Of a stretch of DNA of 64,000 nt, positions 812 through 61,432 are shown one piece after another; position 1 is the first letter of the stretch; each line of letters starts with the position of its first letter. The notes under the pieces are model-generated. The model did no database searches and was not told the DNA's origin. It saw only the letters and a program-made list of their open reading frames with translations. The position numbers and the translations under genes are program-made. The stretch lies in the IMG/VR virus record IMGVR_UViG_3300012157_000001, positions 32,001-96,000 of that record; one strand, written 5' to 3'. The DNA comes from a virus. Its lineage: Duplodnaviria > Caudoviricetes.

Positions 812-1405
812 ATGGCAGACGACGATAAACCGGCCAAGCCGGCGGAGCCGTCTCCTCGCATCGAGGCGCCGATGATCTTCGTGCGCGGCGGAACCACGAC
901 GGCGAAGCACGATGTGCTTATGGCGAAGCAACGCGCGGATACCGAGCAACGTCGCGCCATTCAGGACCGGCAGTATCAGATCACGCGCGAGGACCCGATG
1001 GCCGCGCGCATGCATTCTATGAAACTTGCGGGCGCCGACTCGCCGAAGATCGTCGTCGCGGTCAAGCATCCGAAGGAGCTGGACTTCAAGGAATGGGTCA
1101 TCTGTGACCTGCTCGACCAGGGCACGGAGAAGGTTCTGAACATGCGGTGCCCTCAGTGCGCCGCAAAGAACCCGGGCCACGAGCCCGACTTCATGATCAA
1201 GCAGTCGAACCGGCGGTGGCACTTCGACCCGCGGCCGCCGAGGTGGATGCGCGACCTCGGGACCGACCGGATCTGGGTCAACCCGGCGGACGGCAGCACG
1301 GTCGTGGTGGCGGGCAGCGTGACGACCGACGACTGGATCCGGTGTCCGGGCCTCGGGTGCGCCTGGCACTTCAAGATCGACGACTCGGTGGCGTACCCCA
1401 AATGA
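812..1405 (+). CDS. Hypothetical Zn-binding protein
   Basis: CPQC and CPGLGC motifs. Start placed at ATG 812, after a TTGACC-18-TATCAC promoter; the ORF-track extension to 662 runs through the repeats. Confidence 0.65.
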   Translation: MADDDKPAKPAEPSPRIEAPMIFVRGGTTTAKHDVLMAKQRADTEQRRAIQDRQYQITREDPMAARMHSMKLAGADSPKIVVAVKHPKELDFKEWVICDLLDQGTEKVLNMRCPQCAAKNPGHEPDFMIKQSNRRWHFDPRPPRWMRDLGTDRIWVNPADGSTVVVAGSVTTDDWIRCPGLGCAWHFKIDDSVAYPK

Positions 1406-1842
1406 GCGATGATACCCTTCAGAGCGGTGCGGACGTTGTCACCTCGGCGTCCGCGCCGGCACGGCTGTCGGCTACACCCGGCGGCCGTGCGCTTTCTGAG
1501 GAGCCCGAGCTCACAGCAGTGGATGCGGCGGAGCTCCGTGCTGCCGAGCTCGCCATCGCAGGAGAGAAGGATCGCCCGCTCACACTCGAATTCGGGAAGC
1601 GGCTCGACCGGTTCATTGCGGACGCCCTCATCGAGCACACGAAGGACCATCCGCTCGCCGACCCGTTCCAGGTCATGGAGACGCTGCTCAGGATCTCCGC
1701 CGGCATCGCGATCGTGCGTGACCGCGACGCAATCTGGTTTCAGAGCTACGCCCGCGGCATCTACGACGAGGAACGGCAGGCGCGTCCGGAGGGCAAGGCG
1801 CCCGTGGTGCCGGTCGCGATCACTGGGCGGGAGGACCGTTAG
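1402..1842 (+). CDS. Hypothetical protein
   Basis: ATGA overlap with the upstream stop codon. Confidence 0.6.
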   Translation: MSDDTLQSGADVVTSASAPARLSATPGGRALSEEPELTAVDAAELRAAELAIAGEKDRPLTLEFGKRLDRFIADALIEHTKDHPLADPFQVMETLLRISAGIAIVRDRDAIWFQSYARGIYDEERQARPEGKAPVVPVAITGREDR

Positions 1843-1845
1843 CCC

Positions 1846-2334
1846 ATGGGAGTCTGGGGCACGGGGCCTTTCGACAACGATGACTCAGCCGACATGATTG
1901 CCGGCCTAGCACGGAAGGTCCATCGAGTTCTCGAACGGAACGATAGTGACGACTACGGGGAGGCCCGCGCCGCGGCGGCGTTCGTCCTATTGGCGCACGG
2001 GACAGACGTGCTAGGCGGTCCCGGTCTCGATGTGGTGCTGAAGGCGCTCGTCAAGATGCGGGAGAACAACGAGTGGCTGGCCGGGTATCGCCAGCCGCAG
2101 CAAATCGCAGCTGCGCTCAACAAAGAGATCGGCGCCGTTATTGCGAGGATGCGAGCCTGCAAAGGCTGCCGGCGGGGGCGCGATGAAGCCGAGTGGAAAG
2201 AGATAGAAACGCTGGCGCGAAAAGCACGACGGGCGCCGGTGCCGGCTACCACTTGGCGAACAGGTCGTCGAAAGGCGCGAGTGAGCAAGGCGCGCCGCCG
2301 AAGGATCCCTCGAATAAAGGAGCGCCGATCGTGA
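1846..2334 (+). CDS. DUF4259-like protein
   Basis: N-terminal MGxWGxGPFDNDxxAD signature. Confidence 0.7.
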   Translation: MGVWGTGPFDNDDSADMIAGLARKVHRVLERNDSDDYGEARAAAAFVLLAHGTDVLGGPGLDVVLKALVKMRENNEWLAGYRQPQQIAAALNKEIGAVIARMRACKGCRRGRDEAEWKEIETLARKARRAPVPATTWRTGRRKARVSKARRRRIPRIKERRS

Positions 2335-2960
2335 AGCTCGACTTCGACGCTCTCACGCCTGCGCAGCAGCGCGCCGCGGGCAATGTTGCGATCAATCAAG
2401 ATCTCGGAGAGAACCCGCGAGTACTCGCCGCGCTGGAAGATCTCGGCGTGCTGACCTCGTACGAGGAGAACCAGGGCGGACATCCGCCGCTCATGGTGAA
2501 GCGTTACGCGATGCCGGTGAGCGTGCACATGGCGTGGTGCGAGTGGTGCTCACGGACGCCGAAAGAAGAGGCGTTGCCGTGAGTGAGCTGAAGAAAGAGT
2601 GGCTCGCGTACCTATCGCTCGTCGGGCTCAGTGTCCTAGCTGGAGTCATCGGCGGCTACTCCATCGGCCACAACAGCGCCGAACACGACATCGCTGGTCG
2701 GTTCTACCACCGCTGCCGCGAGAACCTTGGTCTGTTTGAGCCGATGACGACGCTCCAGAAGGGCGAATCGGCGTGCGCGCATCTCATCACCGAAGAGCTC
2801 GGAATCGAGAACCGATGGGCCAAGGAACTGCCCTAAGATGGCACGCGACGTCGAAGTCCGTCGTAACGGCCAGGTCGTCGGCCACGCAAGGGTCTGCAGC
2901 CAGGACGACATTGTTCCACCGCGTGGGCTCCCCGCGCCTCGCGAGGACTACGAAGAGAAA

Positions 2961-3644: not shown

Positions 3645-4284
3645 AACTGCGGCCGTGGACCTAGACTCCATGAGGGAGCAGGTCGTCGAGCTCGACGCAC
3701 CGATCACGAAGGTGCAGGAGTTCCTACAAAAGCAACTGAAGCCGCACCGGAAGCAGATTTCGGCGGTGCGCTTCTCGAACGGTCATGTCGAGCAGCTCAC
3801 GGAGGCAACGCTGCAGGTGATCGACGCACCGGCCGAACCCGACGTGGCGCAAGCAGTCGATACGCCCGCCCCTGCGAAGGAGAAAAAGAAGCCCGAGCCG
3901 AAAGGTGCCGTTACTGTGGCGCAGCCCGTGCGCGGGTGTCCCGCGCCGGACTTCGATGACGTCGAGGTCCGAGCGAGCCGCGTGCTCAAGGCGTTTCTGA
4001 CGCGGGATCAGATCGACGATTTCGAACGGCGGCAACAGTTCGTTGCCATCGGTGCCGACACCGGTCACCGGTACCTGCTCACGTCGCGGCACGCAAGGCG
4101 GGCGCTCTCTCAGTACGGCCATCGGACGCTCTACGACATGGACGAGCGCCTGCCGATGTGCGTCCACGACTGGGAGGTCCCGGCGCCGGAGGAGCTCTTG
4201 GCGCTCTTCGTTCACCTGTCACTGCCGGGTTTGGAGGAATACGTCCGGAGCATTCCGGACAGGGACGGCATCCTTGCCCACTGA
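3463..4284 (+). CDS. Hypothetical phage protein
   Basis: Strong RBS (AAGGAG at 3451) before ATG 3463; 273 aa. Confidence 0.75.
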   Translation: MDFQWFLPSMYGDIKLNRVSADSTRMTLNGLSPTEKEAVQALFERATNPGALRKSWATADKTAAVDLDSMREQVVELDAPITKVQEFLQKQLKPHRKQISAVRFSNGHVEQLTEATLQVIDAPAEPDVAQAVDTPAPAKEKKKPEPKGAVTVAQPVRGCPAPDFDDVEVRASRVLKAFLTRDQIDDFERRQQFVAIGADTGHRYLLTSRHARRALSQYGHRTLYDMDERLPMCVHDWEVPAPEELLALFVHLSLPGLEEYVRSIPDRDGILAH

Positions 4285-6972
4285 AGCCGAAGGAGAGGTC
4301 ACCGTGGACGAGAACGGCGTCGTGCGGCTTCCAGATGGCAGCGGCTGTTTCGTCGCTTCGTTCCCGCTGAGGAAGTCGCATTGGATCTACGCTGAGGGCG
4401 ACAACGATCCGCCGATGCCAATGCGCATCGGAGTCGGGCCGGAGCGGGCGGCGCTGGAGGCTCAGATCCGCTCGGCAGCGAAGTACGCGATACGTGCGGC
4501 GACCATGAAGGGAACGGAAATGGACTTCGATCCGGACGCGATGGTCCAAAACATGATCATCGGCCTGCTCGGCTACTGCACGCACGACGGCTCCCACGGG
4601 GGCCGTCTACCGGAGGACGCGGTTCTCGGGAGGCGCCCATGAAGATCGAAGTAAGGACCGGCGACGACGGAGGCGCGGAGGTCATCCTGTCCGACGTGTT
4701 CTCGGGCCTAGGCATCCGGACCGACGCCGGCCTGTTCGGCATCGCACAGCGAGACGGCGGCATCGAGGTGCTGCTTAACGGCACAACCGTGTGGGCGAGG
4801 GGCGCGAGCGCGGAGGACTTGCCGAACACACTTCCGCCGCCGCCGGCCATGACCGAAGAACGAGCTGCAGCGATTGCGAAGGTGATCAGCAGGCTGAGCA
4901 CACGGATCGGTCCTATGTTACGCGACGAGAAGGAGCATTTGGGCGTAGCAGTCGCGCTGACGACGATGGCGGCCCACCACGTGCTTCACGATGGCGCTAC
5001 CGAAGCGGACTTTTTGGATGTCTGCCGGATGGCCTGGAAGAAGTCTTTCGAGGCACACAAGGACTGCGGAAAAAACTGACCGCACCGATGGCAGATACCT
5101 CGCGCAGCTTCATTGGGGAGCGCCTGAAAGCGGCGTGGGCCCATCTACGCGAGCAGAAGGTCGGTGACCTGTACGACCGCGCCAAGCTCTGGGCCGATGC
5201 CGTGTCGCACGGAGCCGACCCGATCGAAGCGATGCACGGGCACCTGTGCGGTCCCGAGTGCGAGCACTGGGAGACAATGAGCGCCGAACGCAAAGCGAAG
5301 CTGCGGAACGCGCCATGGAACAAGCGGAGCTGAGAGATGAGCGACCCGACAGACGATCCCGACGACACGCCTTACGTGCATCAGGTGCTCTACACCAACG
5401 ACCTCATCCGAATAGTCTCCACGTGGCTCGGTGCCCTGTTCACAGTCGCGGATCCCGAGCGTGTGCGCCGAGCGCTGCAGCACGTGCTCGACAACTGGCC
5501 GCGACAGGTAGAGATGTTCGAGAACATGCGGCGTATCGCGCAGCAGGTGGAGGAGCGCAACAAGAGGCAGAGCCAGAAAGGCGGTGGGAATTGACGGAGT
5601 TCGGCGGGCTCGGCGGCGTGAGCGGCGGGAGACCGAGAAACACGGCCGATCTCTTCGAGGCGGCGATCGAACGCGCCTTTGGCGATCGGCTGCGGCACGA
5701 GCGCCGCCAGGGCCTGGACGCACGGAAGGGCGACAACGAGGAGGGAGGATTGTGGGACCGCGACGGGCTCGGAGCGCGACTTTGGGGCTCGCTCGCGAAC
5801 ATCGACTGGATCCACGAAAATGGCGACACGGCGGGCTACTCGTTTCGCGCAGCCGGCGACATGATCGCAGCGGTGGTCGGGGAGGGCGACTACATGGATT
5901 GGTACTGCTCATCGGACGCTGGCGTGGTCGACTCCGAAGTCGCTGAGGGCCTGCTGCGGGAGGGTTGGAGGCCGGAGGCGTGAACCGCCGCGAGCGCCGC
6001 GCGCAGCAGTCGTGGGCCCGAAAGGACCCACGGCTTCAGGGCATGGAGATCCGCTACGGCGGACGGACGCTCGTCTTCCACATCCTGGTGAACACTGACG
6101 AAGACGCGGAACAGGTCGTGTGGAGGCTCAAGCGCGCTGCCCCTGGCCCGAAGCAGGTGATGACTCTCGTGGCCGGTCGCAAACCGGACACGGCACACTG
6201 GGCGTCCACATGGGAAGGAGCCGGCATCCCGACCCTTTTCGCCGGACGCACAATCGCGATGGAGATCTACCTCAACACGGACGAAGAGCCGGGGCCGATC
6301 TCGGCGCGCCTCCTCGCGGCCGCTCGGGTGCCGGGAAACGCGGCGACCGCGGCTGAGCTGCGGAGGCTAGGCAACGTGCCGGATTCAGAGGACGTGAGTC
6401 TCGCCGTCATCATTGCCTGCGGCGACGTCGATGCCGAGGCGGCTCGTTCGGTGTGGGAAGCGACCTTTCGGGCGGGTGTCAAAACGGTGGAGAACGAGAA
6501 CTGATGCCCGACGTTACGACAGGTCGCGTCGGCGCTCTGGAGCGCGAGGGGCCGTGCCACTTTTGCGGTCGGACGGTCTCCCAGTACGCAGTCGTGGGTG
6601 AACCACGGCGAAGCTTCTTCGAACACGAGCATCCATGGTGCGAGGAGTACACCGCAATCGCGGCGGAGCACGGGCTCAGCGCAGAACACAACCCAAAGGA
6701 CGACGATGCCGAAAACTAGCGGCAAGCCATTCAGCCGCATCGTGGAAGCCATCGGCCGCAAAAAGGGCAGCTGGGTCGTCACTGTTCATCAGGGTCAGGC
6801 TCTGCTCGCTGCCGGCTCTATCAACGTAGTCAAGGCTGCCGGAGGCTTCATTGTGACGCTGCGCCTGAGCCGCGACGAGCTACTGAATCTGAGGCGCGCT
6901 GCCGACGAGGCGTTATCTGCTCTCGACGCGCAGTCGCCGCCGCACTAGCGAACAACCCCAAGGAGAAACGTC

Positions 6973-7365
6973 ATGCACGTGCTTTCGTCAATGACCATCG
7001 TCGCCAAGAAAACCGAGGTGCTCGCAACGCTCAAGAGCAACCGCGCAAAGCACTCCGAGATCGTGAAAGAGGCACGAGAGGGCTACATGGAAAAGGCACA
7101 GGCCGCGCTGAAGGAGAAGCTGGAGCACCTGCGGTCGGGCAAGCTCGCGTCGCTCTCTTTTTCACTGCGCGTGCCGCTCGACTACACGAAGGTCTACGAC
7201 ACGGCCATCCGAATGCTGGAGCTCCACCAGAACGACACGATTCAGCTCGACGCCGCGCAGGTACGCAACCTCATGCAGGACGAGTGGGACTGGACGGACA
7301 GTTTCTACGGCACGAATATGGTGTATTCGAAGATGGCGAACGACTTTCACAACGGTGAGGAGTAG
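6973..7365 (+). CDS. Hypothetical phage protein
   Basis: AAGGAG RBS; helical 130-aa protein. Confidence 0.75.
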   Translation: MHVLSSMTIVAKKTEVLATLKSNRAKHSEIVKEAREGYMEKAQAALKEKLEHLRSGKLASLSFSLRVPLDYTKVYDTAIRMLELHQNDTIQLDAAQVRNLMQDEWDWTDSFYGTNMVYSKMANDFHNGEE

Positions 7366-7758
7366 CCGGGCCGCGTATCGGAGGGCCTCGATGGACGACG
7401 AAAAAAAGAAAAAGGCACCGCCGATGCCGGTGCCAATGACCCGACAGCAGCGGCGGCAAATGAAGCGCGGGCGCATGAAGCTCATTGAAGGGGGCAAGCG
7501 ACCGGATGCGCCGAGCGTGGACATGTCGGAGCCGGCGGGGCGCTTCGCGTTCTACCTGCACGACTTCATCGTGCGCTACGTGGCGAAGAATCCTGATCTC
7601 GAAAAAACGGCTGCATGCGCGGCGGCGCTACAGGTCGCGGCGAAGTTCGCGGTCGAGGTCGAAGGCGACGAAGAGGGCTTTGCGGTGGCCGCTAAGCACT
7701 TCTTCAACGGCGAGTGGCAGGCGCGTCGCGGCGCTCCACCACCGCCGAAGGGCACGGG

Positions 7759-9060
7759 ATGAGCAGTCCTGACCAAAAGCTCGTTGCGGAGAACTACTGG
7801 GCGCCAGGCATGGCTGCCGTGAACGACTACGGCGTGATGTACCAGGCCGAGTGGGAAACGCTGTGGGACGGAACCGCCGTTGCCGCGCGTCTCCACGCTC
7901 GTGCGCTCGCGGCGCAAGGTATCCCCGTGCTGCTGAAGTCCTTCTCGGGCATCGTCGTGAACGCGGAGGGCGTGCCAGAACCGGTGTTCGCGGCGGGCCT
8001 TCCAGAGGCGGTGAAGGCCGAGGTCGGCTCGCTTCCAGAAACATCGATCGGGACGCTCGCGATCCTGCTGAAGCACCTGGTTGTCCGTGGGCAAGGCGCC
8101 CTCGACGGATACCTGATGCCTCGGCACGTGGCGCACTCGGACGTTACGGCGCTGCTGGCGCTTCGGAAGGCAGTCTACGACTCAACGATCACGTACACCG
8201 TGTGGGAGCGGGATCGCGTCGCGCCCGGGATCGCTCAGCTGCTCGGACGGTGCGGGCAAGCGTGGGTGCCGTGCAGCCAGAATGCCTCGGCGCTGATCCG
8301 GTCTGGCGTGCCGGCGGAGAAGGTACGGGTCGTGCCGCATCCGTACGAGCCGACCGACTCGATGTGTCGACTCACCGAGCGTAAGCCCATGACCGGCAAG
8401 CGGTTCTATTCGATCGGGCGCTGGGAGCCGAGGAAAGGACTCCACGAGCTCATCGGCGGATTCATGCTCGCGTTCCGACCGGGCGATGATGTGACGCTGA
8501 CGATCAAGACGAGCCCCGGGACGTGGAAGGGATACCCGAATCCAGAAGAGAGCGTCTCCTGGTGGCTCAAGCGGTTCGACTACTGGAGCGAGAAGACGCT
8601 CCACCCGCACCTTGTTGTCGATCATCGGCGGTACCCGAGGAGCCGCATTCTGAAGCTTCACTTCGACAACAACATTTACGTGTCGGCGTCACACGGGGAG
8701 GCATGGAACCTGCCGGCGTTCGAGGCGAAACTTGCCGGTAACCGGCTCGTGCACGTCCCGTTCGGCGGCACGGCGGATTTCTGCGTGGCCGATGATGTGC
8801 CGGTCGCATACGTGATGGAGCCGGTGGCTGGGATCTACGGCTGGGAGCCGGACGCCGAGTGGGCGAGCGTGACGATCGACGAGATAGCCGCGGCGCTTCG
8901 CATGGCGAAAGCGCCAGAGGCTTACGTGCGACCGGAGCACTACGAGCGCACATTCAGCTTCGATGCAGTCGGTGAGAGGATGGCGAACCTCGTACTCGCG
9001 CAGCTCGACGATGTGGATCCGAAGGCCGGAGCCTGGATTCGGGAGCGCAGGCGCAGATGA
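7759..9060 (+). CDS. Glycosyltransferase, GT-B fold (GT4-like)
   Basis: FYSIGRWEPRKG and YVSASHGEAWNLPAFEA (E-x7-E) motifs. Confidence 0.85.
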   Translation: MSSPDQKLVAENYWAPGMAAVNDYGVMYQAEWETLWDGTAVAARLHARALAAQGIPVLLKSFSGIVVNAEGVPEPVFAAGLPEAVKAEVGSLPETSIGTLAILLKHLVVRGQGALDGYLMPRHVAHSDVTALLALRKAVYDSTITYTVWERDRVAPGIAQLLGRCGQAWVPCSQNASALIRSGVPAEKVRVVPHPYEPTDSMCRLTERKPMTGKRFYSIGRWEPRKGLHELIGGFMLAFRPGDDVTLTIKTSPGTWKGYPNPEESVSWWLKRFDYWSEKTLHPHLVVDHRRYPRSRILKLHFDNNIYVSASHGEAWNLPAFEAKLAGNRLVHVPFGGTADFCVADDVPVAYVMEPVAGIYGWEPDAEWASVTIDEIAAALRMAKAPEAYVRPEHYERTFSFDAVGERMANLVLAQLDDVDPKAGAWIRERRRR

Positions 9061-9549
9061 AACCGCTGGACGTCCTCTCCATCCTAGTCACGTCGCACGG
9101 CGATGAGCTCGCACAACGCTTCGGTCGCAGGACCATGGAAGCGTTTAAGGAAATGCATGAACGCCGCCGCGAGCTGACCGACAAGCAAGAGACGTGGGTC
9201 ATGGACGTCGGCGAGAAAATGGGCATCATCACAGCGCCCGGAGCAAACCTGTTTTCGAGGCTTTCGCCGAAGGAACAAGCGCGGCAACGGGCGCAGGCGA
9301 AGAGGATTCTTCCGTGGGAAAAGTGAGTGTGGCGGAGGACAACGACATTCTTGGTCAGTTTCGGCGTGCACATGAGCGCGCAGAACGAGTGGCCCACCAC
9401 TACGGGTTCGCTTTCTACATAGCCAACGGCTTCTACAACGAGTACGCCGGCTGGAAGAGCGAGGACCGAGTAGCGACGGAGGTCGAGCAGGAACTCTGGG
9501 CGGCGCTGGACAGGCTTGCGCCGGCCGACTTGTGAAAGGGACGACGACG

Positions 9550-9822
9550 ATGATCGAACATCAGCACCACAACCTCGACGACGAAGGCAAGCCGGCCGGT
9601 GGCCGTGTCAAGGCTACCGGCTTCGACTTCGAGTGGAACAGCGGTCCGCCCGACAAGCCCAATGGAGCCACGCTCGAAGACGTGCTGGAGGCAGCGATCG
9701 GTCGTCTGGAGTTTCTGCAGAAGGCGCAGCCGAACCGCGACAAGGCGATTGCGCTCAATCATCTCGAAACGGCGTTCTTGTGGTTCCAGAAGAATGAACG
9801 GAAGGGTAAGCGGACCCCGTGA
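9550..9822 (+). CDS. Tad1/Acb2-like anti-defence nucleotide sponge (divergent)
   Basis: WNSGP..NGATLEDVLEAAIGRLEFLQ...RDKAIALNHLETAFLW follows the Tad1 pattern Q.GP...G...DL......RL..FQ....REN..A....EEA..W. Confidence 0.6.
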   Translation: MIEHQHHNLDDEGKPAGGRVKATGFDFEWNSGPPDKPNGATLEDVLEAAIGRLEFLQKAQPNRDKAIALNHLETAFLWFQKNERKGKRTP

Positions 9823-20908: not shown

Positions 20909-21181
20909 GTGAAGGCCACGAAACGGCAGAAGCCGGAGCCGTGGGACCCAACGCGCCTCAGCTTTCGAACGGTCAGGGAGACCAGCGACCGGATCCGCGC
21001 GCTAGCGAAAAAGGAGGGAATGACCGTCACCAGCCTGATCGCTGAGGCTATCTACATTCACCTGCATCGCTTGGAATCGAGAGGTGATCGGAAACGCCGC
21101 CGGATGCTCGTTTGCGGGGCGTGCGGCAAGCCGGCAGTGGATGCTGCCACTGATGGCAGGAAGAAGAGCAGGCAGCCGTGA
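20909..21181 (+). CDS. Ribbon-helix-helix (CopG/Arc-like) regulator
   Basis: LSFRTVRETSDRIRALAKKEGMTVTSLIAEAI; coupled to the methyltransferase by a GTGA overlap. Confidence 0.55.
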   Translation: MKATKRQKPEPWDPTRLSFRTVRETSDRIRALAKKEGMTVTSLIAEAIYIHLHRLESRGDRKRRRMLVCGACGKPAVDAATDGRKKSRQP

Positions 21182-22962
21182 GCACTCTGTTCTACGGAGA
21201 CAACCTGGACAACATGCGGCGGCTCCGCGACGAGACGGTGGACCTCTGCTACATCGACCCGCCGTTCAATTCGAAGCGCACCTACAACCAGATCTACAAC
21301 AACGTCGGACGAGAAGATCGCGCGCAGGCCCGCGCCTACACTGACACGTGGGAATGGGGCGACCGGTCGATCGAAGGATTCCAGGAAATCCTGGGAAACA
21401 AGCACGGGCGGTTCCCCGCGAAGACGATCGATCTGATCAAGGGGCTCCACAAGGTGCTCGGCGAAGGCGGTCTGCTCGCGTATCTCGTGAGCCTGACCAC
21501 ACGAGTCACCGAGATGCATCGGCTCCTCCGACCGACGGGGAGCTTCTACCTGCACTGCGACCCGACGGCGAGCCACTATCTGAAGATCGTGCTCGACAGC
21601 ATCTTCTGTTCGCAGTGCGGCGAGTTCCAGAACGAGATCGTGTGGCGCCGAACCGGCGCGCACGGCAAGACGCAACGCTTCGGGCCGATCCACGACGTCA
21701 TTCTCTTCTACACGAAGTCCGACACATACACGTGGAACCCGGTGAACCGCCCGTATATGCGCGGCCACGTGAAGGAGTACTTCGTGCAAGAGGCCGACGG
21801 CCGTTGGCGGACGAATTACTACGGCAACGTCCTCACTGGGTCCGGGCTCCGCGGCGGCGAGTCGGGGAAACCGTGGCGTGGCTTCAACCCGAGCGCCAAG
21901 GGCCGGCACTGGGCAGTGCCGGGAAAGTTGATCGAGGAGGTCGATGAAGATCTGTCGAAGTTATCGCAGCACGAAAAGCTCGACCGGCTCTACGAGCTCG
22001 GCCTGATCACGATCACGCCGGGCGAGGCGTGGCCGATGTATCAGCGCTACATCAACCGCAGCGACGGCCAGGCCCTGTCGGACCTGTGGGCGTTTCAGCC
22101 GTACACCGATGGCACCGTCTTCGAGACGGCGGACGGTATCGACGCCGACGTGCGGTGGCTGTCGTCGAACGATGCGGAACGACTCGGCTACCCAACGCAG
22201 AAGCCAGAGGGCCTCCTAGAACGCATCGTACGCGCGTCGAGCAAGGAAGGCGACACGGTGCTCGACGCCTACTGCGGCTGCGGAACCACAGTGTCGGTTG
22301 CGCAGCGTCTCGGCCGTGAGTGGATCGGCATGGACATCACGTACCAGTCGATTTCCCTGATCCTCAAGCGCTTGGAAGATGACTTCGGCGAGAAGATAGC
22401 CGAGAGCGTGAAGCTCTCGGGCGTTCCGAGAGACATGGAGTCCGCCGTCGCGTTGGCGCACAAGAAAGACGACCGCGTCCGAAAGGAGTTCGAGAAGTGG
22501 GCGGTGCTGACGTACACGAACAATCGCGGTGCGGTAAACGAAAAGAAGGGCGCGGACGCCGGCATCGACGGAACCGTGCACTTCATGACCGCGGAGAAGG
22601 AGAACGCGCTCATGGTGCTCCAGGTGAAGTCCGGCGGCGTCGGTCGAGGCGACATTGCGAAGCTCCGCGGCGACATGCAACGCGAAGACGCCGAGCTTGC
22701 CGTCTTGATCACGCTGGAATCCGCGAAGGCGCCAATGGTCAAGGAAGCGAATGCCGCGGGGCGCTATCGGCACGAGGTCATGGGCCGGGACTACCCGAGG
22801 ATCCAGATCGTGACCGTCCAGGAGATGATCGAGAAAAGACGCCGGATGGATCTGCCGGTGGAGTGGAAAAAGGAGGCGCCGGCATCCAGTGCTACTGCTG
22901 CCACTGGCGGCACGCGCCGTGCAAGGCATAATGGGAAGAGGCTAAACAATGTTCCACCGTAA
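21178..22962 (+). CDS. Beta-class N6/N4 DNA methyltransferase with a C-terminal Mrr-like PD-(D/E)xK domain
   Basis: YIDPPFNS (motif IV) precedes YPTQKP and LDAYCGCGTT (motif I); C-terminal DAGIDG...QVKSG. Confidence 0.9.
   Translation: MSTLFYGDNLDNMRRLRDETVDLCYIDPPFNSKRTYNQIYNNVGREDRAQARAYTDTWEWGDRSIEGFQEILGNKHGRFPAKTIDLIKGLHKVLGEGGLLAYLVSLTTRVTEMHRLLRPTGSFYLHCDPTASHYLKIVLDSIFCSQCGEFQNEIVWRRTGAHGKTQRFGPIHDVILFYTKSDTYTWNPVNRPYMRGHVKEYFVQEADGRWRTNYYGNVLTGSGLRGGESGKPWRGFNPSAKGRHWAVPGKLIEEVDEDLSKLSQHEKLDRLYELGLITITPGEAWPMYQRYINRSDGQALSDLWAFQPYTDGTVFETADGIDADVRWLSSNDAERLGYPTQKPEGLLERIVRASSKEGDTVLDAYCGCGTTVSVAQRLGREWIGMDITYQSISLILKRLEDDFGEKIAESVKLSGVPRDMESAVALAHKKDDRVRKEFEKWAVLTYTNNRGAVNEKKGADAGIDGTVHFMTAEKENALMVLQVKSGGVGRGDIAKLRGDMQREDAELAVLITLESAKAPMVKEANAAGRYRHEVMGRDYPRIQIVTVQEMIEKRRRMDLPVEWKKEAPASSATAATGGTRRARHNGKRLNNVPP
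22908..22923 (+). promoter_or_regulatory. Sigma54 (-24/-12) promoter
   Basis: CGGCACG-CGCC-GTGCA, GG-N10-GC spacing, 25 nt before ATG 22949. Confidence 0.5.
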
Positions 22963-55679: not shown

Positions 55680-56799
55680 CCCGCTCGGGCGTACCGCGTA
55701 CGCCGCGCACCCAGCGGGCCGCCGCGGCGGCGGCGCCCACCGGCGGCGAGGTGCTCGTCCTGGCCGCTCCCAGGCTCGGGCGGGCGCCATGGCCGCCCAC
55801 CTACCTGGCGCGGGTTCACGACCTTCGGGGGCAGCTCAACGACCTCGGGAGCCTGCTGCGGCCGCTCCAGGACGCCCACCGGGCGTTCAAGGCGCTCGGC
55901 GGGGAGGAGCCGACCGAGGGCGTCACCGAGCGCTGGACGCTGCCGGCTGGGGCCTCGCTGATCGTCGAAGCCGGATTTCGCTTGACTACCGAAGTAGGCG
56001 ACATCGGCCGTGGCGTGATTCCGCCTCCTGACCCGGTAGTGTGCCTCGCGTCGGCGCTGCACACCGCGGAGCTCTGGGCCGAGGCCATGACCACCTTTGC
56101 GCAGGCCGCCCGCTGGGCGATCGAGCAGGCTGAGCAGTGGCACGTAAGCGTTCCCGGATTCGACTGAATCGACCTTGTGACACAATGGAGAGACCGTGAC
56201 GAAGAAGAACACAAAGACGGATCGCGTGAGCCTCGGACCGGTGATCGGCCCGAATGCACGGCTCGCCATGCGCGAGACGGATGGGAACATCGAGCCGATC
56301 GTTGTGCGCCGCGTGCTCGACGGCGAGCCGCTACACGACGGTACTGAGATCTCTGCTGTCGAGAACCCCAACTGCAGCTGCGGTCACTGGCAGGACTTGA
56401 AGCCGGTGTACAAGCGCGAAGGGCGCGCGACCGAGAGCGGCCCGGCTCAGGTCGCGACCCCCGAGTACAGAGCTGGCTACGACCGCATCTTCGGGAAGCG
56501 CCCGACGGTGGGGCTCGCGTGAGCCTACTGAACCTGGACTTTCTCGTTGGTTGCCTGTGCGGCTCTTTCGTCATCCCCGCACTAGTCCGCCGGATGTCGA
56601 CGGGGCGATGGGACGGCTGGATCGAAGCGCGCCGGCAGAAACCAGCGCTCGGCTCTACTGTGCTCGCGTGCCTTCCGTGGACGAGCGTTCACGCGGTGAC
56701 GTACAACGGGCCCGACGGCGGCGGAGAAATTCCCGAGGATGCACCAGCTCTGCTGGCGTCCAATGCCACAGCGCCCTCACTTCCGGGTACGCTAGGAGC

Positions 56800-57801
56800 A
56801 TGTCCAGCGCCCTAATCACCGTCACGAGCCGTGCGCTCGAACCGGCCAAGGCAGCGGAGCTGCGCGCGACCGCCGAAGGGGCTACCGAATTCCTGAAAGC
56901 CGCTCGTGCCCCGAGCACACATGCCTCCTACGCATCGGACTGGCGGCAGTTCAGCGAATGGATCGAGGGTCACGGACTCGACCCGATTCCGGCGGATCCG
57001 CGCATGGTTGCCCTCTGGATCAGCCACATGGCGCGCGCTCTGAAGCGCAAGCCGTCGTCGATCCGCCGAATGCTCACGGCGATCGGAACCATCCACCGTC
57101 GCGCAGGCCATCCGAACCCGTGCGAGCAGGAAGTTGTCCGCGAAGAGATGCGCGGGATCGCCAACACGCTCGGCGTGCGACCGAAGCGGGCGGCGCCGCT
57201 CTTGATTCCACACCTGGAAGCCATCATCGCCGGCATGGGCGAGGGGCTCCGGGCCGCCCGTGATCGCGCGATCGTCCTCGTCGGCTGGAGCGGCGCTATG
57301 CGTCGGAGCGAGATCGCGGCTCTACGTGCCGAGGATCTGACGTTCCTCGACAAGGGCGTCAGCGTGCTGATTCGCCGGAGTAAGACTGACCAGGAAGGTA
57401 AGGGAGAGAACGTAGCCCTCTTCTACGCGACGCGGACGGCGCTCTGTCCCGTGCATGCGCTCCAGGAATGGATGCGCGCCGCGGCGATTACGGCGGGGCC
57501 GCTCTTTCTCCGCCTGAGCAGCCACCGCGACGCGCAGATCATCGCCGATCCGATGTCGCCAGAAATGGTTCGGTACATCGTACAGACGTGGACCGACCGC
57601 GCAGGTGTGCAGCCTGAGCAGATCGGTGCGGTGTTTTCGGCGCACTCGCTTCGCGCCGGCTTCATCACCGAGGCCGCTCGCAACGGCAAGGCCGAGTGGA
57701 CGATCGCGAAGCAGTCGCGTCATAAGAGCGCCGACGTGCTCCGGACGTACATCCGAACCGCCGATGCGTTCGAAGGGAACGCGGGAGAAGGACTGCTGTG
57801 A
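56800..57801 (+). CDS. Tyrosine recombinase/integrase (Cre/XerD-like) with an N-terminal SAM-like domain
   Basis: RDRA...MRRSE (R), RRSKTDQ (K), HSLRAG (HxxR), SRH and YIR (Tyr); AGGAG RBS. Confidence 0.92.
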   Translation: MSSALITVTSRALEPAKAAELRATAEGATEFLKAARAPSTHASYASDWRQFSEWIEGHGLDPIPADPRMVALWISHMARALKRKPSSIRRMLTAIGTIHRRAGHPNPCEQEVVREEMRGIANTLGVRPKRAAPLLIPHLEAIIAGMGEGLRAARDRAIVLVGWSGAMRRSEIAALRAEDLTFLDKGVSVLIRRSKTDQEGKGENVALFYATRTALCPVHALQEWMRAAAITAGPLFLRLSSHRDAQIIADPMSPEMVRYIVQTWTDRAGVQPEQIGAVFSAHSLRAGFITEAARNGKAEWTIAKQSRHKSADVLRTYIRTADAFEGNAGEGLL

Positions 57802-58326: not shown

Positions 58327-58812
58327 ATGGCGCGCGCCGATGATATGGCTGGCGTCTGTGACCGCGAGTGCGCCGTTACCGCCCTCTCCGGGGCGCAAGT
58401 CTGTCCGATCTATCGTCTTCCGTGCTGGCTCTGCGTCGTGCTCCACATCATGACGGGGACCCTCCGGAGCGTGACCGAGGGACGCTTCGATCGGTTCGCC
58501 GGCCGCAGCTTCATGTTGCCGCTCGACGGCGATCAGAAGTACCTCTGGTCGCTGTGGCTCGTGTGCCCCCACCATCCAGGTGCCAGCACCATTGAGTACG
58601 CCAAGCGCCACGGACCCTCGTATTGGCACTACGCCGAACCCTCGCTCACGTCCACGCCGGTGACGCCGGCAAGGAAGGTGAGCGATGGCACATCACAAGC
58701 GGAAGCGACCGAAAAAGCGGCGGGCAGGCTGCCTCTACTGCAAGCCCCACAAGGCGAACGGGCAGGACGCGCAGCGGCGCCAAGAGATGCGCGCCCGGCT
58801 CTCGGAGGCTGA
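58327..58812 (+). CDS. Cys/His-rich protein, paralog of 57798-58127
   Basis: VCPIYRLPCWLC..LH..TG..R.VT.GRF.R...CPHHP. Confidence 0.65.
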   Translation: MARADDMAGVCDRECAVTALSGAQVCPIYRLPCWLCVVLHIMTGTLRSVTEGRFDRFAGRSFMLPLDGDQKYLWSLWLVCPHHPGASTIEYAKRHGPSYWHYAEPSLTSTPVTPARKVSDGTSQAEATEKAAGRLPLLQAPQGERAGRAAAPRDARPALGG

Positions 58813-58831
58813 GCAGCGGAGCGACGCTTGA
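58685..58831 (+). CDS. Small basic CxxC protein (48 aa), absent from the ORF track
   Basis: MAHHKRKRPKKRRAGCLYCKPHKANG...; purine-rich RBS upstream; TGA at 58829-58831. Confidence 0.6.
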   Translation: MAHHKRKRPKKRRAGCLYCKPHKANGQDAQRRQEMRARLSEAEQRSDA

Positions 58832-58863
58832 CGGCCGGCGCTGCCGCTGGCAGCGTTGGCGGC

Positions 58864-59223
58864 ATGGCATTCGACCGATTCGTCTACTGGAGGAAAGGGA
58901 CGCGGCCCACCCGCGAGCAGGTGCAGTTCGTCCTGGAGGACTACGTGCGGGATCTGGCTACCGAGGTCAAATGGGAGCAGGACCGGTTCCTAGTGACGCT
59001 CCCAGGGATGGGCTCCCATCCAGCCGCCCGGATCGACGAGTCGGATACGACGCGCCTAGCCGCTGCGGAAGAGCGAAAGAATGAGCGATGGTTCGAGGTC
59101 TACGTCGACACGGACAACATCGACGTGATCACTCGGCGCGGGGACTGGATCACCAACGCCATCGCGACGGAGTTCGCCCGGATCTGCGCACAGTTCTGGC
59201 AGGGCGACCTGCAGATGGGGTGA
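58864..59223 (+). CDS. Hypothetical protein, leaderless start
   Basis: TTGACG-17-CAGCGT-7-ATG. Confidence 0.7.
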   Translation: MAFDRFVYWRKGTRPTREQVQFVLEDYVRDLATEVKWEQDRFLVTLPGMGSHPAARIDESDTTRLAAAEERKNERWFEVYVDTDNIDVITRRGDWITNAIATEFARICAQFWQGDLQMG

Positions 59224-59233
59224 AGAGCGGCGC

Positions 59234-61432
59234 ATGGTTGCGATGTCCGACGTCGTCGCTGGCACCGAGCGCTGGCACGTGGCGCTCGCCGACTGCCTGT
59301 TCGCGCTCTCTTGCCTACCTGACGCTTCGGTCGATTCGATCGTGACGGACCCGCCGTACGGTCTAGGCACGCGAGACCCGACCGCCGAAGAGCTCGTCGC
59401 GTACCTGACATGTGGCGAGCTAGGGATTCAGCCCAAGGGCCGTCAGCACTGCGCGAACACAGTCCTTCGGGGCGCCTGTATCACGAATCCTAATGATCCT
59501 GAAGCCTCTACTTCGCAATTGACGGTCACGTTTCGTGTCCGCTTCTCTTCTGCTTTTGCGATGGCTGTCCGGAGTGTCCAGCTCCAGCACGAGGCGCTTC
59601 CCCACGAGAAAGTCGACAACATAGGCGGCGAACCCCAACTCGATGACATGCTGGTACCGGCACCGCACTCCGCGCCTACGCAGCGCACTCCGAACAGCCA
59701 GTTCCGTCTTGGGGAATTCCAAGGTTCTGCCGGATGCGTAGGTGTGTGCCGCTGTTTTACGCATCTTAGCGAGTCCCGCTTTGCTGTATCGGTACGGCTT
59801 GACGACGACTCGCTTCGAGAGCCCGAGGCTTCTGCCAGCGTAGTGACACCGACGAGAACAAAACTGCGAGCCGTGCTTACTCTTGATCTGGGAACGACAT
59901 CGGGAGAACTTTGTCTTGCAGACGGCACAGACCAGACGGACAGCGGTCTCCTGCTTGCGCCCACGAAGAATATAGGAACACCGCCTGCTGCAAGTGGTGT
60001 GTCTCCCTCGCTTCAACAGCCACTTCACAGCTCGGTAGGCCCGTCCACAGACGGGGCACGCACGATCCACGTGGCTGTTCCCGTCGCTCTTCTTCGGCGC
60101 TTCCACCAATCCAGCGTCTCACACAAAGATTTCATGGGCAAGGACTGGAGAATCCCACCTATTTCCGTCTGGCGAGAGCTTTACCGCGTCTTGAAGCCCG
60201 GGGGCCATGTGCTTTCGTTCGGCGGCACCCGTACCTTTGACTTGATCGCGCTCGGCCTCCGCGCGGCGGGCTTCCAGTTCCGCGACACGATCGGCGCCGA
60301 GGGCGTGCTGCGGTGGGTGCAGTCGCAGGGCATGCCGAAAGGGATCGACGTCGCGAAGGCGATCGACGCGATGGTCGGAGTCGCGCCTACGGTCATCGGC
60401 ACTCGCGTGCTCACGGGATCGGCGGCCATGTCGACAGCCGAGAAGGGGGGCACGTACGCGGCCGCAACGCGCAGCGCCGGCAGGAAAAAGGAGGTTGCCG
60501 TCACAGCTCCGACGTCGCCCGAAGCGCAAGCGTGGGACGGATGGAACGTCGCGCTGAAGCCGACGTGGGAACCCATCCTGATCTTTCGCAAACCGCTCGA
60601 CGGCACCGTGGCCGAGAACGTACTGCGCCACGGAACCGGGGGGCTCAATGTCGACGGATGCCGCGTGCGAGTCGATCCCGATGCAGACGCGGATCAGCTT
60701 CGACCGGTGAGCCGCGGCCAACGCACCGACGATGACGGCTGGGGCATGAATGCAACCGGCAGCACCACTGGGCAGGTGGTGAGCCCGGAGGGCCGCTGGC
60801 CACCGAACCAGCTGCTCTGCCACCTGCCGAGCTGTCTGCCTACCAAGACGATCGACGTCTGGGATTGTGCACCAGGCTGTCCCGTAGCCGCGCTCGACGC
60901 GCAGAGCGGAGAATGCCCCGCCGGTATCGCGGTCCTACGCAACGGCGGCGGGGGCAAAATATTCGGAAGCGAAAACACGAGAGGTCCGTCGCCGGACGGC
61001 GGATACACGGACACTGGCACGGCATCGCGGTTCTTTCCGCAGTTCGGCTGGGATCCAGTGCTCGACGGTCCTGGCTTTCTGTACGTTGCGAAGGCGTCGG
61101 GCGCCGAACGCGACGCCGGCCTCGACGGCGAGATCAACACGCACGTCTCTGTGAAACCCGTCACGCTCATGCAGTGGCTCATCCGCCTCGTGACACCGCC
61201 CGGGGGACTCGTGCTCGATCCGTATTCGGGTAGCGGTACTACCGGAGTTGCCGCGATGCGCGAGGCCGGAGGCTTCCGTTTCCTAGGGATCGACGTCGAC
61301 CCGGACTACGTGCCGATCGCCATAGCACGGATCCGTCACGTCTCCGGTGGGCACTACCGGACGCTCGCCGAGATCGCCGCCGCGGCCGCCGCGGGTTCCG
61401 CCGGTCCACAGAAGCAGCTCGGCCTCTTCTGA
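59234..61432 (+). CDS. Beta-class DNA methyltransferase (N6/N4) interrupted by an in-frame ~230-codon insert
   Basis: SIVTDPPYG before the insert; DFMGKDW, RVLKPGGH, ALKP.WEPI, H.SVKP and LDPYSGSGTTG after it. Confidence 0.9.
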   Translation: MVAMSDVVAGTERWHVALADCLFALSCLPDASVDSIVTDPPYGLGTRDPTAEELVAYLTCGELGIQPKGRQHCANTVLRGACITNPNDPEASTSQLTVTFRVRFSSAFAMAVRSVQLQHEALPHEKVDNIGGEPQLDDMLVPAPHSAPTQRTPNSQFRLGEFQGSAGCVGVCRCFTHLSESRFAVSVRLDDDSLREPEASASVVTPTRTKLRAVLTLDLGTTSGELCLADGTDQTDSGLLLAPTKNIGTPPAASGVSPSLQQPLHSSVGPSTDGARTIHVAVPVALLRRFHQSSVSHKDFMGKDWRIPPISVWRELYRVLKPGGHVLSFGGTRTFDLIALGLRAAGFQFRDTIGAEGVLRWVQSQGMPKGIDVAKAIDAMVGVAPTVIGTRVLTGSAAMSTAEKGGTYAAATRSAGRKKEVAVTAPTSPEAQAWDGWNVALKPTWEPILIFRKPLDGTVAENVLRHGTGGLNVDGCRVRVDPDADADQLRPVSRGQRTDDDGWGMNATGSTTGQVVSPEGRWPPNQLLCHLPSCLPTKTIDVWDCAPGCPVAALDAQSGECPAGIAVLRNGGGGKIFGSENTRGPSPDGGYTDTGTASRFFPQFGWDPVLDGPGFLYVAKASGAERDAGLDGEINTHVSVKPVTLMQWLIRLVTPPGGLVLDPYSGSGTTGVAAMREAGGFRFLGIDVDPDYVPIAIARIRHVSGGHYRTLAEIAAAAAAGSAGPQKQLGLF
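59420..60109 (-). CDS. DUF559/Vsr-like endonuclease with two N-terminal CxxC...CSxxC Zn fingers (putative homing endonuclease)
   Basis: TE......L.......YQ.......VDF......LELD...H......D..RD..L...GF.IIRI; CPVC...CSRRC and CAVC...FCSRRC. Confidence 0.85.
   Translation of the reverse strand: MVEAPKKSDGNSHVDRACPVCGRAYRAVKWLLKRGRHTTCSRRCSYILRGRKQETAVRLVCAVCKTKFSRCRSQIKSKHGSQFCSRRCHYAGRSLGLSKRVVVKPYRYSKAGLAKMRKTAAHTYASGRTLEFPKTELAVRSALRRRGVRCRYQHVIELGFAAYVVDFLVGKRLVLELDTPDSHRKSRREADTKRDRQLRSRGFRIIRIRDTGAPKDCVRAVLTALGLNP

Follow-up and report, generated by a model that had tools for sequence, protein, structure and literature searches.

The methylase frame and the gene nested in it

The locus described here lies in a stretch of viral DNA of 64,000 nucleotides (nt), hereafter the window, that corresponds to bases 32001–96000 of IMG/VR record IMGVR_UViG_3300012157_000001, a 179,401-bp sequence with direct terminal repeats from a freshwater-sediment metagenome. 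The window has a guanine plus cytosine (GC) content of ~0.65. Near its end, an open reading frame (ORF) encodes a phage DNA methyltransferase (methylase) that is interrupted by an in-frame insert carrying a complete nuclease gene on the opposite strand (Table 1). The Pfam PF01555 match of the methylase is restricted to residues 311–696 (8.2e-23) and the catalytic motif IV, DPPY, is located far upstream, at residues 39–42. The protein aligns with ShiLan gp65 and TeardropMSU gp95. The gene caller of IMG recorded only a C-terminal piece of 432 residues that starts at Met301 (P0160).

Table 1 Features of the methylase locus (window coordinates; aa, amino acids).
Feature	Position	Strand	Description
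Read-through DNA methyltransferase ORF	59234..61432	+	732 aa, uninterrupted; PF01555 N6/N4 type, beta-class motif order
Host N-terminal segment	59234..59422	+	aa 1-63; DPPY at 59348-59359; native peptide TRDPTAEELVAYLTCGEL
Shared junction codon	59420..59422		host Leu63 CTA, antisense of the nuclease TAG stop
Insert	59423..60127		705 nt = 235 host codons (aa 64-298); empty alleles have 12 nt (DTGG) in its place
Nuclease gene	59420..60109	-	229 aa from TTG 60109, probably 228 aa from GTG 60106; antisense, codon-aligned
Vsr-like/DUF559 nuclease domain	59426..59740	-	aa 124-228; PF04480 34.6 bits, 1.8e-8, against a cut-off of 20.6
Two Zn-ribbon repeats	59825..60073	-	CPVC..TTCSRxCSY and CxxC..FCSRxCHY; invariant Cys columns in alignment A2
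Nuclease leader inside insert	60110..60127	-	18 nt; host codons SSVSHK
Host C-terminal segment	60128..61432	+	aa 299-732; DFMGKDW, RVLKPGGH, ALKP..EP..RKPL, GRWP, SRFF, VKP, DPYSGSGTT (S-adenosylmethionine motif I)

The limits of the insert were set by nucleotide alignment to contigs L068 and L069 and by protein alignment to P0162, P0161, P0164 and P0165, and a dip in GC content from ~0.66 to 0.58 over the insert agrees with them. The four proteins are the nearest methylases in a collection of 5.8 billion proteins (63, 56, 52 and 50% identical, respectively); all are full-length and insert-less and follow the pattern DPPYG(L/I)G.R.P…E.LAYL.G.EL-DTGG-DFM..W. At the DNA level the empty site reads GAA CTG / GAC ACC GGC GGC / GAC TTC ATG in L068 and GAG CTC / GAC ACC GGC GGG / GAC TTC ATG in L069, and the window reads GAG CTA / 705 nt / GAT TTC ATG; the codon that corresponds to Leu63 is thus CTG or CTC in the empty alleles. 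Because the insert-less homologues share the peptide pattern ..R.P...E.LAYL.G.EL, the segment that follows DPPY in the window is native to this methylase subfamily. A different placement of the insert, 59369–60130, was derived from the DPPYELG / FMGKKWD junction of TeardropMSU and from an X3 contig in which FMGKGWD follows position 59368. It was rejected because the closer homologues show TRDPTAEELVAYLTCGEL as native and the methylase of the X3 contig is more distant and has no such extension. The junctions show neither terminal repeats nor a target duplication; the direct and inverted repeats there are short and at chance level only.

An earlier note, made from the sequence alone, had placed the break in the methylase motifs at ~59422 and their resumption at ~60122, which proved essentially exact. 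Its stop-free, frame-preserving insert of ~700 nt is the open 705-nt segment. The antisense ORF that it described at 59420–60109, with two Zn repeats, a DUF559/Vsr-like nuclease and a stop codon at the left junction, agrees with the PF04480 match and with the CTA/TAG codon shared with Leu63. The region is also spanned, without differences, by an independent Logan contig of 4607 nt, which may derive from the window's own source sample, and the left junction is spanned by a contig from a second sample. The nested region did not arise by misassembly.

The two frames are codon-aligned, such that plus-strand codons start at 2 mod 3 and minus-strand codons use the same triplets. Alignment with L011 and L012, which begin ATG GAA, makes the GTG codon the probable nuclease start. 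The Zn-ribbon module in the N-terminal half of the nuclease is presumed to bind DNA and is common to the phage HNH endonucleases of PHROGs phrog_1271 and phrog_14913. The nuclease also matches PF18741 (REase_MTES_1575), below the cut-off. An AlphaFold2 (AF2) model computed from 11 sequences has a mean pLDDT (predicted local distance difference test) score of 88 and comprises two zinc ribbons followed by an α/β domain. The closest PDB structure to this domain is the catalytic domain of I-Bth0305I (3r3p), with a VIA Z score of 11.0, a root-mean-square deviation of 3.5 Å, 92 of 98 residues superposed, 21% sequence identity and a Foldseek TM score of 0.71. The next matches are the DUF559 protein NGO0050, Bax1 and Vsr (1cw0, Z score of 8.2). 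A comparison of the nuclease profile (alignment A2) with PDB sequences yielded 3hrl (4e-6), PvuRts1I (4.5e-6) and 3r3p (4.9e-4). Candidate catalytic residues, judged by alignment columns, are D166, E176, D178, D191 and D195, which do not vary across A2; the E-x-D-(G)-x-x-H block can be aligned with 3hrl.

Nested relatives and the codons of the antisense frame

A tblastn search of 50,697 GenBank phages with the nuclease gave no match, and a single-protein scan of viral contigs found no relative. A word index returned four relatives, an exhaustive phmmer search 472 (~10 of them full-length), and an alignment-based scan of IMG/VR 52 loci. At ~33 of the 52 loci the codon-aligned antisense frame is open across the entire nuclease gene and extends 400–2200 nt past it on one side and 100–600 nt on the other. 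The host was a PF01555-type methylase at every open-frame locus examined, and the insert is flanked by DPPYxL(S), or the AYL.G.EL extension, on one side and by (G/D)FMGKxW on the other. The same architecture is present in ~25 independent viral contigs and in one NCBI contig, and two short metagenome contigs show the same nested arrangement. The best relative for which DNA is available, P0003 (50% identical, locus L005), lies antisense inside an open 796-codon DPPY methylase ORF that the gene caller split into pieces of 58 and 461 residues. The best nuclease relative, P0010 (54% identical), shows a similar pattern, judged by its gene table alone, with pieces of 66 and 659 residues on the opposite strand. 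A word-index search with the host-frame insert peptide (aa 60–300) returned no match because gene callers skip read-through ORFs, and a scan of viral contigs with the C-terminal part of the methylase returned two distant loci only.

In every tabulated nested locus the nuclease terminates opposite a host codon for Leu (CTA/TTA) or Ser (TCA), of which its stop codon is the antisense; in most of these loci the host codon lies within the DPPYxLS motif or directly 3' of it. Within the nuclease genes, TTA, CTA and TCA are the codons that would place a stop in the host frame. None of the 828 Leu and Ser codons of 26 nested copies (the window, L005 and 24 viral loci) is one of these three, whereas they account for 86 of 485 in 16 non-nested relatives. 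The antisense cassettes that the earlier note had suggested looking for elsewhere are thus found in diverged contigs, in frame in each case. The nested loci range in GC content from 0.39 to 0.69. When computed with the host's own Leu and Ser usage, the probability of an open frame, P(open), is 7.6e-10 for L030 (GC 0.39), 8e-5 for L028 (GC 0.46) and 7e-4 for L011. The log10 P(open) values of the nested loci, some of which are near-identical, sum to about -59, and the conclusion of stop avoidance does not depend on the exact joint figure.

Third-base sharing at fourfold sites, relative to composition, is 1.12–1.17x in nested pairs and 0.95–1.04 in non-nested or mixed pairs, a small difference that is confounded by stop avoidance and shared ancestry. 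The host-frame peptides of different loci share a mean identity of 0.33, lower than the 0.45 of the nucleases, as expected for a loop peptide that is a passenger. The nested architecture and the selection for an open host frame are close to certain. The only account that makes sense of selection against stops in the host frame is that ribosomes traverse the insert.

Other relatives show related arrangements. At L053 (1114–6024, minus strand) the nuclease homologue is positioned head-to-head with a methylase mini-exon that ends in DPPYG and a stop codon, and L024, L031 and L042 are similar. A TTG-started ORF, MTIPGLEFMGKDWD…, follows the L053 mini-exon in the -1 frame with a stop/start overlap, ggTTGAcc, and the C-terminal half of the methylase is encoded upstream. 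The mini-exon arrangement indicates that the methylase at such a locus is split or permuted precisely at the site of the nested elements. The L053 C-terminal piece (1114–2874, minus strand) contains an intein, WMYG/CLSEDTEVL…VTGN/SGFPKY, inside which a gene for a 270-residue Zn-ribbon and HNH endonuclease (1479–2291, minus strand) occupies another frame of the same strand. At L006 (1693–5774) the relative P0005 shares the Zn-ribbon module only and has an HNH domain; it is free-standing, lies on the opposite strand and adjoins two tandem PF01555 methylases.

Interpretation of the nested arrangement

We consider it likely that the insert is an antisense nuclease gene of the homing type, which the phage methylase tolerates as a loop that is read through. 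The element would be a mobile endonuclease gene of the I-Bth0305I kind, antisense and codon-aligned in a beta-class N6/N4 DNA methyltransferase, at a putative surface loop between motif IV and the DFMGKxW helix. Ribosomes on the methylase mRNA would read through the 705-nt insert, and the resulting methylase would contain a loop of ~235 residues for which no fold is predicted. Selection would purge TTA, CTA and TCA from the nuclease gene such that the host frame never meets a stop, and the nuclease stop would be borrowed as the antisense of the host Leu codon at the junction. The nuclease itself would be made from an antisense transcript. During co-infection it would cleave methylase alleles without the insert, close to the conserved DFMGK-coding site, and the element would be copied in by repair. 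Translation of the nuclease from an antisense transcript is suggested by a Shine-Dalgarno-like motif at -16 to -5 of the antisense start in 15 of 25 nested relatives, among them L018 (GGAGGacaagATG) and L030 (AGGAGaccaaagATG).

Several observations weigh against this interpretation. The open frame of the window locus alone is weak evidence. The earlier note had cautioned that a codon-aligned register often stays open in GC-rich DNA, and rightly so: the codon-aligned antisense frame is open in 18–22% of the 229-codon gene windows of this genome. Synonymous-codon resampling gives a P(open) for the window locus of 0.13 with genome codon usage and 0.16 with the host gene's Leu and Ser usage (0.07 with that of low-GC3 genes). 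Even P0009, a nuclease paralogue in L005 that is free of this constraint, has just one such codon among its 29 CTN/TCN codons. The joint probability over the nested loci overstates their independence because these loci are related. At L009 (483–1370, minus strand) the host methylase extends only 25 codons past FMGHEWDAF, and a small, unrelated methylase comes next; the host is truncated or decaying, though the antisense frame across the nuclease is open. The window nuclease is preceded by only a weak Shine-Dalgarno-like GGA, and a minus-strand promoter scan of the window found 0 sigma-70-like sites. A loop of 235 residues, modelled as unfolded and situated 21 residues after DPPY, could impair the enzyme. 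Lastly, the methylase of L068 (2965–5491) has no insert at the window's site; it is interrupted at a second site, following AERDAGLD, by an antisense Vsr-type gene unlike that of the window (4256–5071; 271 residues, four Zn ribbons and a GDYWHGNP motif), and this element breaks the host frame with a stop at 4353, leaving the C-terminal piece as a separate ORF (5171–5491).

The frequencies given above for the window locus are also what favours simple gene disruption, in which the antisense frame would be open merely by chance in GC-rich DNA. Chance would further have to supply the matching register as well as a length that is a multiple of 3 (~1 in 9). This state recurs in the diverged relatives, including AT-rich ones for which P falls to 1e-9, whereas the non-nested relatives do contain the stop-generating codons, and the host motifs are intact on both sides of the insert. 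Nested copies with frameshifts or plus-strand stops, a chimera at the junctions and a covariance-model match to an intron, all of which the earlier note had named as signs that would speak against its reading, are absent. Chance disruption is refuted at the level of the family, and we assign it practically no probability.

Splicing signatures were sought at both the RNA and the protein level. A search of 58800–60700 against Rfam at E ≤ 10 identified no intron class and gave only two chance-level rows, of the small RNA and long non-coding RNA kinds; Rfam searches of 13 diverse nested loci at the gathering score gave nothing. Hint, intein and LAGLIDADG domains had no Pfam match at E ≤ 0.1 in the window ORFs. 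The leader is the only insert sequence outside the nuclease ORF, and the junction residues, L63/G64 and K298/D299, offer neither a nucleophile (Cys, Ser or Thr) nor a terminal Asn. In contrast, the intein of the L005 helicase was recognised by eye (LVLDEC/CVSGTLVEV…NGILVHN/CHR). By these signatures the element has neither an intron nor an intein, in accord with the earlier remark that there is little room for a ribozyme and that intein blocks are missing.

It is nonetheless conceivable, and in our view very improbable, that the insert is removed after all, through an RNA splicing or bypassing mechanism as yet unrecognised or through protein splicing of a non-canonical kind. The missing signatures leave room for a novel mechanism, and removal at the protein level would also need an open frame. 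Removal at the RNA level, however, would not select against stops, yet the stops are purged. The 18 nt outside the nuclease ORF and the Rfam searches of the window and its relatives argue against an RNA mechanism, and the lack of a Hint fold, of intein blocks, of suitable junction residues and of predicted structure in the loop argues against a protein mechanism. The authors of the ShiLan study reached the same negative for their element (PMC11855218). The earlier note had left the choice between a looped-out peptide and unusual splicing or bypassing; the looped-out, read-through peptide is favoured, and splicing or bypassing is not needed, RNA splicing being an option that would leave the stop avoidance unexplained.

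An AF2 model of the host ORF built from 25 insert-bearing hosts has pLDDT values of 77–91 for residues 10–40 and 80–89 for the core blocks. Residues 43–304 of the host have values of ~30, below 50 throughout, and no fold is predicted for the insert peptide. The N-terminal exon is packed confidently onto the methylase core. DPPY, KPGG and ALKP..EP are invariant or nearly invariant across the 25 hosts, and Gly666 of motif I is nearly invariant. Because the motifs are conserved in all of them, the insert-bearing methylases look functional and probably retain activity. Methylases of the Taj type carry a folded, in-frame LAGLIDADG domain in the same loop, a few residues downstream (after FMAKTWDALDGRE), which identifies the loop as a permissive spot.

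A further explanation, which we regard as quite unlikely, is that the frame is kept open only for ribosome movement, avoiding Rho-type polarity on the later part of the gene and on genes further downstream, and that the fused methylase is inactive or dispensable or that the active enzyme is the 432-residue piece from Met301. The ShiLan work argues that this methylase family is non-essential for the phage (PMC11855218). Met301 lies in the conserved FMGK motif and was chosen as the start by gene callers (P0160 and the 461-residue call in L005), and the loop is close to the catalytic motif. Against this, DPPY and its strand are kept in all 25 hosts, unlike in a dispensable remnant, and the confident packing of the N-terminal exon is that of a part of the enzyme. 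An amino-methyltransferase C-terminal piece without motif IV could not catalyse the transfer.

The evidence that the antisense nuclease gene is mobile begins with the empty sites. The window's site is empty in its closest methylases, P0162 and P0161, and in L068, a syntenic contig of 185 kb whose neighbourhood matches that of the window, with an integrase upstream of the methylase. The nucleases of L018 and L020 are 99% identical and their methylase cores 73% identical. Between the nuclease start region and the DPPY codons, the DNA of these two loci is 98–100% identical; identity is 85–95% over the next ~240 nt of the downstream exon and drops sharply on the other side, a gradient expected from homing with co-conversion. 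Nuclease and host identities are weakly correlated over 300 pairs (r = 0.28). The empty sites and the L018/L020 tract point to homing, from which we infer site-specific cleavage by the nuclease. The paralogue P0009, a 229-residue Zn-ribbon and DUF559 protein (L005, 7882–8571, plus strand), is encoded in the intein of an SNF2-type helicase (6915–9554, plus strand). It occupies the endonuclease position of that intein on the same strand and out of frame, no in-frame endonuclease domain being present there, and the intein frame is open across it (chance P = 0.001–0.004). Since P0009 too lies in an open host frame, the nuclease family appears to be habitually overprinted inside host ORFs.

A restriction-modification-like or weapon pair, in which the nuclease cuts host or competitor phage DNA that lacks or carries the methylase mark and nesting links the two genes, would still involve read-through. 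We consider this unlikely. It draws on the profile match to the Vsr-like domain of the modification-dependent PvuRts1I, which is as good as that to DUF559 proteins, and on the sub-threshold PF18741 match. In addition, the relatives nearly always lie beside methylases even when un-nested, as in L006 with its two methylases and in L024, L031, L042 and L053 with their DPPY mini-exons. However, the top structural match is a homing endonuclease, and the paralogue resides in the intein of a helicase, which has nothing to do with methylation. The closest relatives have an empty site, a tract resembling co-conversion is common to L018 and L020, and phage HNH genes of the homing type have the same Zn-ribbon module. 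The position beside DPPY is also typical of homing elements, which as a rule insert at conserved catalytic-motif regions.

Two other features of the window concern neighbouring genes. A tyrosine-integrase-like ORF, judged by eye, lies upstream of the methylase (56551–57801, plus strand); its counterpart in L068 matches Pfam Phage_integrase, and the 179-kb phage may be temperate. A second methylase (21178–22962, plus strand; 594 residues, DPPFNS type, PF01555 5e-39) is unrelated and insert-free and does not have the DPPYxL…FMGK target region.

Beyond the window, we lean on balance towards a wider reading of the homing-type, read-through element. The nested copies would represent a widespread, undescribed class of homing elements that needs neither intron nor intein and consists of a codon-aligned antisense gene overlapping a permissive loop of the target protein. 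In this class the stop codon would be borrowed from a host Leu or Ser codon, and the element would persist by purging the three codons that generate stops in the host frame.

Relation to known homing elements

The usual view is that homing endonuclease genes persist in essential or conserved genes under the cover of self-splicing introns or inteins. As a third way, the ShiLan work suggests a tolerant loop combined with an open host frame (PMC9957025, PMC11855218). The element in the window would be the same solution in mirror image, with another nuclease fold, on the opposite strand and in exact codon register, and the nested antisense elements are common in environmental phages of very different base composition. 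The codon counts of nested and non-nested copies form a clean quantitative selection signature of translation that crosses the element. The locus thereby offers an unusually well-supported natural case of a long antisense overlapping gene pair, a class still debated in prokaryotes and phages. If the interpretation is correct, it would be among the best comparative cases of an antisense overlapping pair of more than 220 codons with both strands translated, over a GC range of 0.39–0.69. Because gene callers miss the read-through ORFs, as in the window and in L005, the annotation of such phage methylases and nucleases is systematically wrong. Such nucleases probably have long recognition sites beside a conserved methylase motif and may be of interest to enzyme hunters.

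The closest known system is the ShiLan domain, a stop-free, non-splicing, in-frame insertion in actinophage methylases that hides an HNH endonuclease out of frame on the same strand (Gosselin et al. 2023, PMC9957025; Arsenault et al. 2025, PMC11855218). The two systems share the PF01555 phage methylase host family, a patchy, homing-like distribution, the absence of host-frame stops and of intein or intron signatures, a disordered host-frame product and a complete endonuclease ORF in another frame. They differ in that the ShiLan nuclease is an HNH enzyme encoded in a shifted frame of the same strand, whereas that of the window combines Zn ribbons with a Vsr/DUF559 domain on the opposite strand in exact codon register. 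The ShiLan site, mapped on ShiLan gp65, follows GWGTALKP and lies ~150 residues downstream of the window's site. The ShiLan domain occurs in actinophages, whereas the family of the window reaches well beyond them, down to a GC content of 0.39. The ShiLan paper has no mention of antisense, opposite strand, DUF559 or Vsr. ShiLan gp65 ends where the second site of L068 lies and the tails are similar (RLRADLTPEQ and RLRSDLSEEQ); for that reason a related element may lie unannotated in ShiLan-type phages.

Antisense VSR-like homing endonucleases have been reported only within inteins, whose host proteins are DNA polymerase, minor capsid protein, terminase and thymidylate synthase (Gosselin, Arsenault, Gogarten, bioRxiv 10.1101/2025.01.02.630785). 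As in the window, a Vsr-like endonuclease is antisense to a host ORF whose frame must stay open. There, however, a self-splicing intein removes the junk peptide, whereas the window's element has no intein and the insert peptide would therefore stay in the methylase. That preprint covers antisense VSR-like and out-of-frame EndoVII-like intein endonucleases, not same-strand out-of-frame VSR-like ones such as P0009. The suggestion in the earlier note of an undescribed selfish cassette inserted backwards accordingly needs division: the homologous cassettes, the empty alleles and the homing-type tract uphold the selfish backwards cassette, but with the ShiLan reports of 2023 and 2025 and the antisense intein endonucleases it is not wholly undescribed.

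The predicted fold of the nuclease domain matches that of I-Bth0305I, from a Vsr-like (EDxHD) homing endonuclease family, whose gene lies within a group I intron in recA (Taylor et al. 2011, PMC3239194). Both are phage-borne, share the catalytic domain fold and target conserved genes. They are set apart by the N-terminal DNA-binding region, which in the window consists of two Zn ribbons, and by the lack of a surrounding intron or intein in the window. The 'fractured genes' of Dassa et al. 2009 are a further point of comparison.

The in-frame LAGLIDADG domain of Taj-type methylases corresponds to the 'second homing endonuclease' in Gosselin et al. 2023 (PMC9957025). It is found in the loop discussed here, within the same methylase family, and likewise has no intein. 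It is encoded in frame on the sense strand, so that the endonuclease is a folded domain of the methylase polypeptide, whereas that of the window is antisense. Free-standing homing endonuclease genes are also known to split phage genes, for example mobE in nrdA of phage Aeh1. These resemble the window's element as nuclease genes inside a conserved phage gene that have no intron or intein, but they leave two separately translated pieces, as does the second-site element of L068, whereas the element in the window keeps one continuous host frame. The window's element thus combines an antisense Vsr-like nuclease with an intein-less insertion, and is an undescribed antisense variant of the ShiLan type of insertion.

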